In this document: piece by piece, positions 1 through 9,000 of the stretch | Layout: every line of letters starts with the position of its first letter | How positions within the stretch are numbered: position 1 is the first letter of the stretch | Assembly: GCF_058153355.1 (NCBI RefSeq) | Contig: NZ_CM177019.1 | Direction: 5' to 3' (one strand) | Length of the DNA stretch: 64,000 nt | Program-made: the position numbers

Positions 1-3000
1 CGTCGCCAGCTGGTCGACAGCACGCCATTTTGGTCTGAATCATCTCGGCTTACTGGCACCCGGCAAGCAGGCGGATATCGTCCTGTTGAGCGATGCGCGT
101 AAGGTCACGGTGCAGCAGGTACTGGTGAAAGGCGAGCCGATTGACGCACAAACCTTACAAGCGGAAGAGTCAGCGAGACTGGAACAATCCGCTCCGCCGT
201 ATGGCAATACCATTGCCCGCCAGCCAGTTTCCACCAGCGACTTTGCCCTGCAATTTACGCCTGGAAAACGCTATCGGGTCATTGACGTTATCCATAACGA
301 ATTGATTACGCACTCCCGCTCCAGCGTCTACAGCGAAAATGGTTTTGATCGCGATGATGTGTGCTTTATTGCCGTACTTGAGCGTTACGGGAAAAAACTG
401 GCTCCAGCCTGTGGTTTGCTCGGCGGTTTTGGCCTGAATGAAGGCGCGCTGGCTGCGACGGTCAGCCATGACAGCCATAATATTGTGGTGATCGGTCGTA
501 GTGCCGAAGAGATGGCGCTGGCGGTCAATCAGGTGATTCAGGATGGCGGCGGGCTGTGCGTGGTACGTAACGGCCAGGTACAAAGTCATCTACCGTTGCC
601 CATTGCGGGGCTAATGAGCACCGACACGGCGCAGTCGCTGGCGGAGCAAATTGACGCATTGAAAGCCGCCGCCCGTGAATGTGGTCCGTTACCGGATGAG
701 CCGTTTATTCAGATGGCGTTTCTTTCCCTGCCAGTGATCCCCGCGCTGAAACTAACCAGTCAGGGGCTGTTTGATGGCGAGAAGTTTGCCTTCACCACGC
801 TGGAAGTCACGGAATGAAAAAAGACCGTATTAGCTGATTTACGGAAAATATGTACTCCACAAGCGTCAATATCAGACGAGGCCTGGGAAAAGATGATGTT
901 GTCTGATGAAAGTAATCAGCAGCACATCCGTGAGGCTATTGTGGCGATGGAACGCAATAACCAGAACAATTACTGGGAAGCGTTAGGCAAGGTTGAATGC
1001 CCGGATATGTAGACGTGAAGCCGCAGCTTCACGTCTACATTTAGCACTTAACGTGAACGTACATCGGGAATAATTAAATCACCACGCAAAACATATGAAC
1101 CCAGCATCGTCTGCGTTTTCTCGTTAAGCCAACTGACTATGCGGGCGGCCATTTCGTCCAGCGAATATTCTATCGCCGGAATGGTCGGTATCCCCGGAAG
1201 ATGAACAGTACCCGCCAGACTAAATACCATAATGTCCTCAGGAACAGATTTATTAAACGCCTGCAATTGCGGTATCACCCGCTGTGCTTGCTGTTCATCA
1301 GCAACTAATAACGCATTAAAGTTCAGTGTTGAGGCGTTATTTAGCAGCTCCTGCAAGGCCACTGAGGAAGAGATTGCTTCCATAAAAACCAGATTACGGT
1401 TAAAGGGAAGAAAGTTTTTCTCCAGCGCGTGTTTATAGCCCAGTAAAACCTGGTCAGAAAATCCCATACCGTGTGGGTGGATGAGGGCGATTTGTCGTCT
1501 GTTCTGACTTATCAGATAGTTACAAGCGGTTTCAGTCGCGAATGTGTGGTCGAACTGAATACTGTTAACATCATTACCCGTCTCAAGGCAGTCCACCAGT
1601 ATCACGTTTTCCTGATGAATATTCAGTGGAAAACGCGCACCAATAATCAGCACGTCATCACACAAACCACAGCCCAACTCATCAAGGGCGTTCTTTACCT
1701 CGGCTTTATTGCTGGCGAAGCGAAGAAGTAGATGTTTTTGATGCTGGCTGAGATGTTTTTCCAGAGCGTAAAGATAACCGGTGGTCTGATTAATGTTTTC
1801 CTGAGCACAAATTACACCGATACAGCCCGTAGATTGCGTCAGCAGTGACTGCGCAATGACATTGGGACGATAGTTTAGCTCTTCGACGGCTTTCAATACC
1901 GCGAGACGGCTGGCTTCTTTAACACCACGCGATCCGCTCAACACCCGAGAAACCGTCGCTTTTGAAACGCCAGCCAAACGCGATACATCATTGATAGTAG
2001 ACATCATTCTCCCCTGACAGAGCAGCCCTGGCTCCCACAATCCTGAATTCCTGTTGGCTTAAATATTAGCCGCTCGCAGTATAACTGTTTCCGTTTTTTA
2101 ATGGAAACCGATTTTCCATGACACCTCAAAACTGAGCTAATAATGATAAAAATGTGAACACAATCGAAATAATAACGCGACTTTATAGCGAAATCTGATA
2201 GCCGTCACAGTTTGACGTTTCCATGAATGGAAACCGGTTTCCAAATGATATCAAATCAATTGCGAAATAGATTTTTACATTCAGAGGATGTGTCAGATGG
2301 TCAGGATTATGTTGTGTTGCTCTGCGGGGATGTCAACCAGTCTGCTGGTGAAAAAAATGGTCGAGGCCGCAGAAAGCAGAGAGCTACCGGTAGAGATAGA
2401 TGCCTACGGAGTTTCCGAATTTGATATTCAGTTTCCAAAATATCAGGTGGTGCTACTCGGACCGCAGGTAAAGTACATGTTAAACATGCTCGCAGAAAAG
2501 GCCGCCCCCCAGGGAATACCCGTAAAAGCCATTGATATGGCGGACTACGGAATGCAACGGGGTGACAAGGTGCTGGATTACGCTCTGTCGCTCATTGCAG
2601 CGACACATTAGAAAGGTGTCATTATGAGTTCGTTATATCAATCAATGGTTGCCGTTATTGAACAATCCATCACACCGCTTGCCGGGAAGCTGGGGCAGCA
2701 AAAATATGTGATTGCCATCCGGGACGGTTTTACTGCCGCTCTACCGTTTATGATCATCGGTTCGTTTATGCTGGTGTTCATTTTCCCACCGTTTTCGGCT
2801 GAAACAACCAACAGTTTTGCCCGAGGCTGGCTGGATTTCTCCGCCACCTACCGTGAACAGCTAATGTTGCCATTTAACCTCAGCATGGGGGTGATGACTT
2901 TCTTCATCTCAGTAGGGATCGGCGCCAGCCTTGGGCGACAGTTTAATCTCGATCCGATTATGTCTGGCTTGCTGGCATTTATGGCATTTTTACTGGTCGC

Positions 3001-6000: not shown

Positions 6001-9000
6001 ATTAGCCGAAAGGCAAGAAAAAATGGATGCCGCGGCAGCGAAAAAAGTGGATGTGATTAACGAACCGGAAAGTGCTGCGCAGTCTCCGGATATGGCAATT
6101 CCCTTTGGCGTAAAATTTAGTGGTTATGCCCGTTATGGGGCTCATTTTCAAAGCGGCGATCAAAAATATGTTGCTGTAGACGGCTCCTATAATGGTGCAT
6201 CTGCAATTGGTCGTCTGGGGAACGAAGGTAACGGCGGAGAGTTTCAGTTATCAAAAGCCTTCAAGAGCGATAACGGCGCAATCTGGGATGTCAATGTCAT
6301 GATTGATCACTGGGGCGACGAAGTTAACCTGAAAAAAGCCTACGCTGGTGTCACCAATGTTCTGGCATCCAATCCTGACGCCTATATCTGGGCTGGTCGT
6401 GACTTCCACCAGCGCCCGCAACAGGGCATTAATGACTACTTCTGGATGACTCACGATGGTCAGGGTGCCGGGGTGAAAAATTTCGACATTGGTGGCATCA
6501 AGTTTGACCTTGCTACTGTCGCAGCGGTTGAATCCTGTAATCCTGAAGTGATGGAGGATGAGACTAATCCATCACGCATTACCTGTACTGGCGGGTCAGG
6601 AACGGGCGACAAAGGCAATTATGCGGTAACGTCCAAAATCCATGGTATGAAACTGGGGCCACTGGATCTTGAGTTGTACGCTAACTACGGCTTCGACTCA
6701 AAAGCGGTCGAAGGTGAAGACAAACTGAAAGCCTGGCAGGGGGCATTTGTTGTAAGCCATAGCAATGACAGCGGAGTGAATAAAGTCATTGCCCGCTACT
6801 CTGATAATTCCGATAACAGTGTTTACAATAAAACTGACGATCTCACGACAATTTACGCCAGCTTTGAAGGTAGTCATAAATTTACCCAGCAGGCGCAAAT
6901 CGAGTATTTACTGGCCTTCCATGATTACGACAACAGTTCCATTAAGAGTGATAACCGCAAAAACTATGGCGTAATTGTCCGTCCTATGTATTTCTGGAAT
7001 GACGTTCACTCCACCTGGCTTGAGGCGGGTTATCAACGGGTTGATTATGATAAAGGCGGAGATAATTCCGGCTGGAAGCTGACGCTGTCACAGAACATTT
7101 CTATTGCGATGGGCCCGGAATTCCGCCCAATGCTACGTTTCTACATGACGGGCGGGCAAGTTGATAATGACCGAACTGCACGCGTCAACGGTACAAAAGA
7201 GGAAACGCTTGACGACTTTAACCTTGGCGCGATGTGGGAAGCCTGGTTCTGACAGACCACTCACATTGAGTTAATGCAACCAAAACACGCCTTCTTCTGG
7301 CTGGAAGAGGGCGTTATAGCCTATCTGGAAGGCATTAATCTCCTGCCTATCTGGCTCTAATTCACGGAGAAAACCCAGCGCCAGACGGACCTGGGCATCC
7401 GTGATCGGCGCAGCAAGACGCGCTTTTTGCAACAACCGATGCCAACGTAACAAGTTCTGCTCACTAGCATCGACAATCACAATTTGCCAGATAAGTAACA
7501 CCTGAGCAGCATTTTGCAGATGAGATTCATCCGGGCGATGCAAATAATACAAAAACTCTTCACCAGGCATTTTCCCCATCTGATCGATCATCGATTCTAC
7601 GGGTACAACATCAATATTAAGTCGTTCGCTTAAACGGCGGATCGCCCGTCGGGTGCCTGACATCAGAACCCGAAAACCAACCACAAATACCACCACGATG
7701 GTGGCAAGCATTATCCAGATCATGCGTTCTCCTGCTTATCAACTTTTGATGATATCTGGAAAACGTCCCCAGGCGTTAATCTGGTCTAATTGAATAAAAA
7801 AAGCCCGGCGTCATGCCGGGCAAAAGTCACCAGTTACGTTTATGCCACTGTCAACTGCTGAATCTTTTTCTCGCGGCGGATTTTGCGTTCTTCCATCACC
7901 GCCACTATCGCCATCAGGCAGATACAACCAATCGCGGCGATGTCCAGCGCGGCGAAGGTGCCTGCCCAGCCAGTAAGGCCGAATACTGGCGTCCCATCGG
8001 CAATCATCCCCAGCCCTAACTTGGCAAAGCTGTCGCCAATCAGGTAAGCAAAGGTGCCTTTAATACCATCGGCAGCACCAATGGCTTTTTTAGGTACAAA
8101 ACCAACAGCAGCCACACCAATCAACAATTGCGGGCCAAAGACCAGGAAACCTAACGCAAAGAGAGAAGCCAGGTAGATATATTCGTTGCTGGCATGTTGA
8201 TACACACCGAGCGTGGCGATAATCAGCGCCAGCGCAATGCAGGCCACCAGGCCACGGCGACCGTTCGCCAGGTCAGAGAGCCAGCCCCACAGCAGCGTAC
8301 CGACCAGCGCGCCAGCTTCAAACAGCGTAAAGCCCTGAATCGCCACCGCTTTAGAGAGTTTCAGTTCCTGGAACGCGTACACGGTTGACCACTGGTCGAT
8401 ACCAATACGCACCACATAGAGGAAAATGTTGGCGAAGCACAGCAGCCAGATCACTTTGTTTTTCAGCACATACTCAACAAAGATCTGCCACTTGGTCATA
8501 TCGGTAGATTCTGTCTCTTTGTCCTCTTCGCTGATCTCCTCGCCGAACAGCTCTTCAGCTTTGCCGAGGCCATAAGATTCCGGGGAGTCGCTGCCGTAAC
8601 GCAGGCCGATAAAACCGACAATCAGCGCGATAATCGACGGGAAGATAAACATGCCGATGACATGACCATCGAACAGGTAATTTGCGCCGAACAGCGCCAC
8701 ACCTGCTGCGCCTGCACCGCCAAGGTTGTGAGAAATGTTCCAGAAACCGAGGAATGTCCCGCGCTTACGACGCGGCGTCCATTTGGTGATGGTGGAGTAA
8801 CTGCACGATCCCCCGGTACTCTGGAAAAAGCCGCTTAAGGCGTAGAAGGCAATCATCAGGAACAGGCTAACCGAGCCGCTGCCCATACTGGCACTGAAGC
8901 CCAGCATACAAATGGCAGACAGGATCAGCATGAACGGCAGGAATTGTTTGGTGTTTTTGCCGTCGGCGTAGTAGGAAACCAGCGTTTTACCCACGCCATA

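Follow-up and report, generated by a model that had tools for sequence, protein, structure and literature searches.

In a stretch of 64,000 nucleotides from contig NZ_CM177019.1 (NCBI RefSeq assembly GCF_058153355.1), hereafter the window, a 6.95-kb insert (positions ~818-7792) that is not found in E. coli K-12 sits between the adenine deaminase gene adeD (stop at 817) and uhpT (7840-9231). We read this insert, with a probability of roughly three in four, as an inducible and self-contained pathway for small beta-glucosides, which derives from an E. fergusonii-type chromosomal allele and arrived by recombination. Judging from the encoded proteins, its most likely substrates would be cellobiose and plant sugars akin to it (for example gentiobiose, amygdalin, arbutin and salicin). 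An earlier look at the sequence alone (the original prediction) had proposed, between convergent ade and uhpT genes that are neighbours in K-12, an accessory beta-glucoside module with a divergent LacI-family repressor, the phosphotransferase system (PTS) proteins EIIB and EIIC, a glycoside hydrolase family 1 (GH1) enzyme, EIIA and a dedicated LamB-family porin. This much stood up: all six genes are present, uninterrupted and in their predicted places in the open reading frame (ORF) list of the window, the module is absent from the K-12 site, the GH1 and IIC genes are intact, and adeD and uhpT converge across a spacer of 45 base pairs (bp) in K-12, as they do in about 5,390 further complete E. 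coli genomes. The proposed span of 1048-7723 was right for the six genes, but it also took in a DUF1198 gene that had gone unmentioned and fell short of the true insert with its yicS relic. With gene starts corrected from the RefSeq annotation of near-identical relatives, in which the gene names are generic only, and from Shine-Dalgarno spacing, the layout is as follows (strand given where one applies).

1-817, plus strand: 3' end of adeD, a partial gene (NCBIfam NF007457, E 2e-141), 95-97% identical in nucleotides to E. coli and E. fergusonii
818-1012, plus strand: yicS' relic, the last 64 codons plus stop without a start codon, forming the left end of the insert
1010-1040: inverted repeat TAGACGTGAAGC-CGC-AGCTTCACGTCTA between the yicS' and lacI stops, a self reverse-complement blastn match
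1048-2004, minus strand: LacI/GalR-family repressor gene, 318 amino acids, divergent from the operon; NCBIfam LacI-family models at E 1e-28, under all equivalog cutoffs
2297-2611, plus strand: PTS EIIB of the lactose/cellobiose family (TIGR00853, E 2e-26), with a CSAGMSTS loop containing Cys8
2624-3955, plus strand: PTS EIIC of the lactose/cellobiose family, 443 amino acids (TIGR00410, 368 bits against a cutoff of 236)
3976-5373, plus strand: GH1 6-phospho-beta-glycosidase, 465 amino acids, preceded by AAGGAG at 3962-3967, with NEP (Glu166) and ENG (Glu364)
5370-5672, plus strand: PTS EIIA of the lactose/cellobiose family, 100 amino acids (TIGR00823, E 3e-35), with the histidine motif HAQDH
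5750-5787, plus strand: conserved intercistronic hairpin with an 11-bp stem, then TTATTAT, between the IIA and porin genes
5873-7252, plus strand: LamB-family sugar porin, 459 amino acids (Pfam PF02264 over its full length, E 2e-73)
7271-7723, minus strand: yicN2, a second DUF1198 gene (Pfam PF06711, E 9e-71)
7724-7839: yicN2-uhpT spacer, of which 7724-7763 corresponds to the region upstream of E. fergusonii yicN and 7796-7839 to the common ade-uhpT spacer
7764-7795: 32 nucleotides within that spacer without an E. fergusonii match
7840-9231, minus strand: uhpT, convergent with adeD

The substrate is indicated by the transport proteins and the enzyme of the cassette, by which we mean the repressor, IIB, IIC, GH1, IIA and porin genes. 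The separate IIA, IIB and IIC proteins match models of the Lac/Chb family (TC 4.A.3) and their phosphoryl carriers are present (Cys8 of IIB; the HAQDH of IIA, at residue 76). The best NCBIfam model for IIC is the cellobiose one, whose equivalog cutoff is 434 bits against the 368 scored, and the matches of IIB and IIA to TIGR00853 and TIGR00823 fall under the subfamily cutoffs. Both catalytic Glu motifs that had been predicted for the GH1 enzyme are in place (FNEP at residues 164-167 and SENG at 363-366). Its closest solved relative is S. pyogenes SPy1599 (4b3k/4b3l, 5foo; E ~1e-150, 49% identity over the full length), in which the aligned NEP and ENG motifs and the phosphate-pocket motif WSWLNAYKNRYG (residues 419-430 in the cassette enzyme) are identical, although SPy1599 is a Gram-positive enzyme with no accompanying porin. 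In structures of LacG and SPy1599, the phosphate-pocket residues are a Ser replacing the Glu of non-phospho enzymes, plus a Lys and a Tyr. The enzyme is 30-34% identical to BglB and AscB of K-12, and the nearest NCBIfam models are those for beta-glucosidase and 6-phospho-beta-galactosidase. SPy1599 is described as a 6-phospho-beta-glucosidase, and GH1 enzymes of such kind can have dual gluco/galacto activity (PMC10360150). The cassette enzyme may prefer 6-phospho-beta-glucosides over the galactosides.

Since the nearest characterised enzyme is a 6-phospho-beta-glucosidase and the best IIC model is the cellobiose one, a small beta-glucoside is the favoured substrate, and the sugars used by cassette hosts are suggestive, if no more, of the same. 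E. fergusonii, which holds the cassette as a resident and intact locus, ferments cellobiose and amygdalin, unlike E. coli, and is lactose-negative (PMC9830988, PMC6963453, PMC9895846), and the cassette-bearing Kosakonia type strains (loci L015 and L017) use cellobiose, gentiobiose, beta-methyl-glucoside and amygdalin (PMC3728145). The lactose phenotype also bears on another reading, in which the cassette would be a PTS for lactose or another beta-galactoside with a 6-phospho-beta-galactosidase, as in staphylococci and lactococci. The second-best NCBIfam models do lean in that direction (356 and 299 bits for 6-phospho-beta-galactosidase, along with the IIA and IIC families for lactose) and dual-specificity GH1 enzymes are documented (PMC10360150), but genes for a tagatose-6-phosphate pathway are missing from the insert, SPy1599, the nearest enzyme with a solved structure, is called a 6-phospho-beta-glucosidase, and E. 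fergusonii does not ferment lactose in spite of its intact cassette, which makes a beta-galactoside system very unlikely.

For small beta-glucosides, family membership and motifs suggest the following route. The sugar would cross the outer membrane through a trimeric LamB-type channel and would then be carried over the inner membrane by the Lac/cellobiose-family EIIC, which would phosphorylate the 6-OH of the non-reducing glucose by way of a relay from phosphoenolpyruvate through EI, HPr and EIIA (His) to EIIB (Cys8). The GH1 enzyme would split the resulting 6-phospho-beta-glucoside into glucose-6-phosphate and glucose or an aglycone. Without substrate, the LacI-family repressor would hold two operators, O1 at the operon promoter and O2 at its own promoter, and a conserved CRP-like site would add catabolite control. 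The predicted translational coupling of EIIA agrees with an ATGA at 5370-5373, in which the GH1 stop overlaps the IIA start.

The second part of our reading, the origin of the insert, is supported by its nucleotide identity. Window positions 813-7763 are 98.06% identical over 6,954 contiguous nucleotides to E. fergusonii ATCC 35469 (CU928158.2), which has the same genes, order, operator and regulatory footprint; the E. fergusonii block, however, is found upstream of adeD and has a complete yicS, whereas that of the window is found downstream of adeD and its yicS is truncated. Neither this identity nor the yicS relic and second yicN featured in the original prediction, which likewise did not include the occurrence of the cassette, with its invariant operator, in at least about 60 species (see below). 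The gene orders compare as follows.

K-12: yicS, nepI, yicN, adeQ, adeD, uhpT
E. fergusonii ATCC 35469: yicL, yicS (full), cassette, yicN, adeD, uhpT
Citrobacter: yicS (full), cassette, nepI, yicN (DUF1198), uhpT, with adeD elsewhere
Window and carrier E. coli: nepI, toxin-antitoxin pair, yicN, adeQ, adeD, yicS relic, cassette, second yicN, uhpT

The yicS' relic, labelled in relatives by RefSeq as a partial YicS family protein, is 97% identical in nucleotides to the full-length E. fergusonii yicS and 82% to K-12 yicS, and yicN2 is 96.7% identical to E. fergusonii yicN and 78% to the yicN native to E. coli, which is present as well, upstream of adeQ. Because E. fergusonii and K-12 share just 75-79% nucleotide identity in yicL, yicS and yicN, against ~95% in the selC region, adeD, uhpT and uhpC, the selC-adeD interval exists as two deeply diverged alleles in Escherichia, and these identities assign the insert to the E. 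fergusonii type, as a fragment of its yicS-yicN region. No integrase, transposase or tRNA/att site was found at the insert in the ORF list and family searches, and its borders share just an imperfect A-rich repeat (13 of 15 nucleotides). The 'island' of the original prediction is therefore accessory but is not a classical mobile genomic island; it is chromosomal DNA of an E. fergusonii-type allele. yicN2 is probably a passenger from the donor allele that stands outside the sugar pathway, and the inverted repeat at 1010-1040 is a likely bidirectional terminator. The interval in E. fergusonii ATCC 35469 lacks nepI and adeQ, and in carriers, in DNA that precedes the start of the window, the genes between nepI and the native yicN encode a RelE/ParE-family toxin and a helix-turn-helix antitoxin (locus L085, 5653-6313; locus L090, 389-1049), a pair that K-12 does not have at this place.

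The junctions hint at how the block was placed. On the left, the joint falls within a shared A-rich stretch with the microhomology AATGAAAAAAGACCG (AATGAAAAAAAGACCG in yicS, AATAATAAAAAAAAGCCCG at the adeD end), and junction alignment shows the adeD stop TGA (815-817) to be a product of the junction. On the right, E. fergusonii homology stops at 7763, and the next 32 nucleotides align weakly with yicN-uhpT spacers of Leclercia and Silvania. Both junctions fit an exact insertion between GGAAT and AATAAAAAAAG. When the window, one E. coli carrier and E. fergusonii are compared with one another, synonymous divergence (dS) is 0.01-0.10 in the cassette, about half that of the flanks (0.10-0.17), which suggests that the block has moved between Escherichia lineages. 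Homology-facilitated illegitimate recombination is our best inference for its placement: a 6.95-kb yicS-yicN piece of the E. fergusonii type would have recombined between adeD and uhpT in a small number of E. coli lineages, its left side being joined through microhomology. As to the direction of the event, both an insertion into a K-12-type adeD-uhpT junction and a deletion between the 13-of-15-nucleotide repeats of a carrier-type junction are possible. Two other origins were considered and rejected. A recent import from Citrobacter does not fit nucleotide identities of 79-84%, which are no higher than those of uhpT/uhpC (83-86%) and compare with 98% for E. fergusonii. Retention of an ancestral locus at this site is at odds with the separate nepI-yicN-adeQ block that carriers keep and with the insert's yicS' and yicN being just 78-82% identical to the native copies. 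At the right end, the small RNA UhpU (uhpT 3' end plus adeD-uhpT spacer in the K-12 annotation; locus L084, 9731-9996) corresponds to window ~7793-8058, exactly at the end of the insert, and the uhpT/UhpU terminator at 7803-7821 is abutted by the insert and left unbroken.

The porin was the ground on which the original prediction had called for a substrate too large for general porins. The protein matches PF02264 over positions 1-378 of 378, as expected for the LamB/ScrY family, and is laid out as a signal peptide (1-24, ...SAQA|QE), a helical N-terminal extension (~25-60), a linker and a beta-barrel (79-459), with aromatic residues that align with the LamB greasy-slide positions in the HMMER alignment. 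An AlphaFold2 (AF2) model of moderate quality (pLDDT 67) retrieved LamB (E 8e-18), ScrY (5e-13) and chitoporins (~1e-7) in Foldseek; the cassette porin shares the 18-strand sugar-porin fold with LamB and ScrY at just ~20% identity, and ScrY was not found from the porin by sequence at E<=0.01. ScrY carries an N-terminal periplasmic helical extension, to which that of the cassette porin can be likened. Here the predicted fold and the LamB/ScrY assignment agree with the original prediction, and the AF2 helix at residues 29-56 supports a helical extension; the coiled coil proposed for it is unproven, as Pfam Sugarporin_N, the N-terminal domain of the ScrY/BglH type, gave no match on the extension at E<=10 and the hydrophobic periodicity is 0.49 at 3.75 against 0.22 at the heptad value of 3.5. 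The mature N-terminus, QEFTQEQIDAIVAKAVDKALAERQ..., is nearly invariant across genera, and the helix could be a distinct periplasmic module. Porins of Hafnia and Erwinia (loci L044, L045, L060 and L065) have a 16-residue internal duplication (VDKALAERQxKIDxA) in this helix.

A dedicated LamB-family porin that is conserved with its cassette, and an invariant helix suggestive of a specialised channel, could be taken as the sign of a system that imports larger beta-linked oligosaccharides such as cellodextrins, and LamB itself passes maltodextrins. ScrY and LamB also improve the uptake of disaccharides, however, and the proposed link between a private porin and a bulky substrate does not hold for other porins of this type, which accompany small substrates, namely aryl-glucosides of ~280 Da for BglH (PMC2646131) and sucrose for ScrY. 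In addition, several Pantoea loci keep the PTS and GH1 genes with no porin match in tblastn, and cleavage of a phosphorylated cellotriose would leave unphosphorylated cellobiose for which the insert has no enzyme. A single glycosidase with neither kinase nor second hydrolase instead fits a disaccharide or an aryl-glucoside, and uptake of large oligosaccharides is accordingly unlikely.

The spacer between the repressor gene and the PTS operon contains several candidate regulatory elements, listed below. Palindromes in it were located by pattern search, whereas an inverted-repeat search at the settings used gave none in the regulatory region.

2078-2083, minus strand: predicted lacI promoter -10 TATACT, a promoter-like match whose -35 lies inside O2
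2102-2118: candidate operator O2, TGGAAACCGATTTTCCA, overlapping the -35 of the predicted lacI promoter
2153-2168: weaker CRP-like site
2194-2209: CRP-like site TCTGATAGCCGTCACA, its TGA..TCACA columns invariant across 11 genera
2228-2243: candidate operator O1, the perfect 16-bp palindrome TGGAAACCGGTTTCCA, lying in the inferred PTS operon promoter after its -35 and before its -10

O1 occurs only once in the 64-kb window and is found in ~65 of ~70 cassette loci from many genera, once per locus and at a constant distance ahead of IIB. Four blocks of the divergent spacer do not vary when 11 genera are aligned: O1, O2, TGA-N7-TCACA and GCAGTATA, the last being the -10 TATACT of the minus-strand promoter-like match. 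The repressor belongs to the LacI/GalR family by its N-terminal HTH_LacI domain (PF00356) and its periplasmic-binding-protein-like domain (PF13377), both matched in an identical gene, by the LacI-family models and by a candidate operator near the promoter that is palindromic and has CG at its centre. The two operators lie ~125 bp apart centre to centre (~12 helical turns), and an extended -10 TGATATCAA at 2246-2254 would place the transcription start so that the CRP-like site lies at about -60. Such an arrangement is consistent with repression of the operon promoter at O1, autoregulation at O2 and catabolite control. The GAAACCGGTTTC core of O1 and the sequence GTGAAACCGGTTTCTT are also present in the ascG-ascF spacer of K-12, and the repressor itself shares just 26% identity with AscG; searching the literature for TGAAACCGGTTTCA, a candidate AscG operator, led to Pseudomonas PtxS papers and not to AscG. 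Further downstream, the hairpin at 5750-5787 shows compensatory changes in the 11-genus alignment (RNAalifold consensus -9.2 kcal/mol; single folds -12 to -20) and is probably a partial terminator or mRNA-stability element that sets the ratio of porin to PTS expression.

These conserved elements also speak to whether the cassette, though intact, stays silent in this host, in the manner of bgl, asc and chb in K-12, and would contribute nothing without an activating mutation. Those three silent beta-glucoside operons are a precedent, and the G+C content of the insert (47%; 51% for the remainder of the window), with its trough of 37-43% around 4750-6250, could attract H-NS. On the other side stand the conservation of promoter, operators and CRP-like site, a resident host, E. 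fergusonii, that is cellobiose-positive, and selection: the ratio of non-synonymous to synonymous substitution (dN/dS) is 0.02-0.12 for all cassette genes against E. fergusonii, an E. coli carrier and Citrobacter (repressor 0.05-0.06, IIC 0.02, GH1 0.03-0.12, porin 0.02-0.11). Since purifying selection is strong in every comparison, even among close Escherichia copies, the cassette genes have been functional somewhere, and recently, and we hold silence in this host to be improbable, though a possibility to be reckoned with.

Several other points weigh against an active small beta-glucoside pathway. The GH1 and IIC proteins score under every NCBIfam equivalog cutoff (for GH1, those of the BGL, LacG and BglA types), and the GH1 Ser-Trp pair is also found in 6-phospho-beta-galactosidases such as LacG. 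The positions of the promoter and CRP-like site are predictions from consensus and conservation. Other loci may explain the phenotypes of E. fergusonii and Kosakonia, and in the searchable literature we found neither an experiment on the cassette in any host nor a paper tying it to a phenotype. Finally, E. coli's own cellobiose and aryl-glucoside operons (bgl, asc and chb) are silent, so that expression here is not guaranteed.

Among known systems, the small beta-glucoside pathway that we favour works like bgl with its porin BglH but with Lac-family PTS parts and a LacI repressor, and it belongs to none of the bgl, asc, chb and bgc operons; the comparison with chb, asc and bgl that had been suggested alongside the original prediction thus sets the cassette apart from all three. 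The E. coli bgl operon (bglGFB-bglH) likewise combines a PTS, a GH1 6-phospho-beta-glucosidase and an operon-encoded LamB-family porin (PMC2646131), but it uses a Glc-family fused EII (BglF) and the antiterminator BglG, where the cassette has a Lac-family split EII and a LacI repressor. BglB and BglH are 30% and ~26-34% (local) identical to their cassette counterparts, and blastp gave no match of any insert protein to BglF or AscF at E<=1e-3. The bgc operon is similar in being an accessory set of Lac-family IIB/IIC/IIA with a phospho-beta-glucosidase for cellobiose, arbutin and salicin, and different in being a B2-strain operon with a GntR-type activator, BgcR, and BgcEFIA, as opposed to a LacI-family regulator (PMC3585215). 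Relatives of the cassette occur in 63 of 5,426 complete E. coli genomes (blastn down to ~65% identity), none of them among the many B2 genomes. Because they are found in just these 63, bgc is not a close relative, the bgc sequences themselves lying outside this comparison. Neelakanta, Sankar and Schnetz (2009) reportedly found bgc, going by their title, to be prevalent in septicemic and uropathogenic strains.

Similar in its PTS is chb (chbBCARFG), with split IIB, IIC and IIA proteins of the same superfamily, and it can evolve cellobiose use (PMC4488073). The identities of 46% (IIB to ChbB), 30% (IIC to ChbC) and 52% (IIA to ChbA) are what favours a chitobiose or chito-oligosaccharide substrate, the latter also entertained in the original prediction. 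Against it, chb has the GH4 enzyme ChbF, the deacetylase ChbG and the AraC-type regulator ChbR and no operon porin, and no GH4, deacetylase or AraC-type gene is present in the insert; ChbC, ChbB and ChbA equivalog cutoffs are all missed (200 against 760, 69 against 157 and 117 against 148 bits), and the porin is LamB-type, with chitoporins only as remote fold matches. GH1 enzymes of this clade, furthermore, act on gluco- or galacto-configured 6-phosphates, and a chitobiose system is hardly tenable. A second rare E. coli cassette (23AR0885, locus L088, NZ_CP195389.1 3703348-3715116; in ~38 E. coli genomes) has the same IIB-IIC-GH1-IIA order at 56-69% amino acid identity, with a LamB-family porin (24% identical), a MalM-family gene and a LacI-family gene on the opposite strand, but it occupies a different locus that adjoins remnants of phage or integrative elements. 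As for defence systems, none of the insert proteins gave a PADLOC match (0), and this reading was dropped.

In order to place the insert within E. coli, window positions 1-9300 were searched by megablast against the 5,426 complete genomes. The flanks are present in 5,416 of them and the whole stretch in just 24, which bears out its accessory nature. The insert alone was found in 27 genomes, comprising the 24 with it at the adeD-uhpT site, one copy at another locus (LH50-c) and two remnants; overall, the cassette occurs in ~1 in 200 (about 0.5%) complete E. coli genomes and in more than 1,000 public assemblies. One remnant, in 14EC033, consists of an IS1-truncated porin gene and the DUF1198 gene. 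The LH50-c copy lies in another accessory region together with a 183-nucleotide adeD fragment and a yicS relic, and its porin allele differs (83% nucleotide identity). Window positions 9300-34000 share 98.5-98.7% identity with some ten genomes that carry the label E. coli, and 96.6% with all others, which places the window in a diverged E. coli lineage; this would be compatible with cryptic clade I, a group within 95% average nucleotide identity of E. coli (PMC9830988). In the closest complete genomes of this lineage the insert is mostly absent; the public contig GCA_043012465.1 is 100% identical over the insert and adeD/uhpT flanks and 99.9% in uhpC and uhpB.

Beyond E. coli, searching a single genome of each species with the GH1 protein gave at least 80 loci (E. 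fergusonii was not among the matches listed and was found via protein search). Among the matches listed, tblastn shows the cassette order (divergent lacI, then IIB-IIC-GH1-IIA-porin) to be kept in at least ~60 species of Enterobacterales, including Citrobacter, Kosakonia, Phytobacter, Enterobacter, Leclercia, Lelliottia, Atlantibacter, Mangrovibacter, Pantoea (one copy on a plasmid), Erwinia, Serratia, Yersinia, Hafnia and others. Citrobacter cassette proteins are 89-95% identical to those of the window. Several Enterobacter loci are also without a porin match, but the sampled loci end just after IIA and the porin region is outside the sample. Four Citrobacter loci (L004, L005, L008 and L025; C. 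werkmanii, C. youngae and relatives) contain, adjoining yicN and uhpT, a GH1 gene with 90-93% identity to that of the insert, and there tblastn finds no lacI, IIB, IIC, IIA or porin; these may be decayed or rearranged cassettes. The cassette is thus an ordinary kind of system in an unusual host, and the normal state of the locus in E. fergusonii and many enterics, and is no new kind of system.

A more specific proposal, which we put forward tentatively and at somewhat less than even odds, is that the cassette is the basis of the E. fergusonii cellobiose/amygdalin trait, and that it reached the rare E. coli carriers from a chromosome of the E. fergusonii type by homology-facilitated illegitimate recombination (with a uhpT-side anchor and 13-15 nucleotides of microhomology at the adeD stop); these strains would then be cellobiose-positive 'atypical E. 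coli'. This would provide a candidate locus for a textbook diagnostic trait, the fermentation of cellobiose and amygdalin that separates E. fergusonii from E. coli, and, if true, a small and identifiable set of E. coli would score cellobiose-positive. The cassette is also a compact (6.2-kb) native enterobacterial candidate module for cellobiose with its own outer-membrane channel, of possible use to those who engineer E. coli to grow on products of cellulose degradation; neither E. fergusonii nor a porin comes up in a review of cellulolytic E. coli from 2026. It offers, in addition, a clean case of a chromosomal allele fragment, and not a mobile element, acting as an 'island'.

Elsewhere in the window, two minus-strand ORFs lie between uhpA and ilvN, encoding 495 amino acids (12951-14438) and 383 amino acids (14690-15841), for which there was no NCBIfam, PADLOC or precomputed Pfam match. 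As uhpA and ilvN are adjacent in E. fergusonii ATCC 35469, 12951-15841 represents a second insertion in the lineage of the window.

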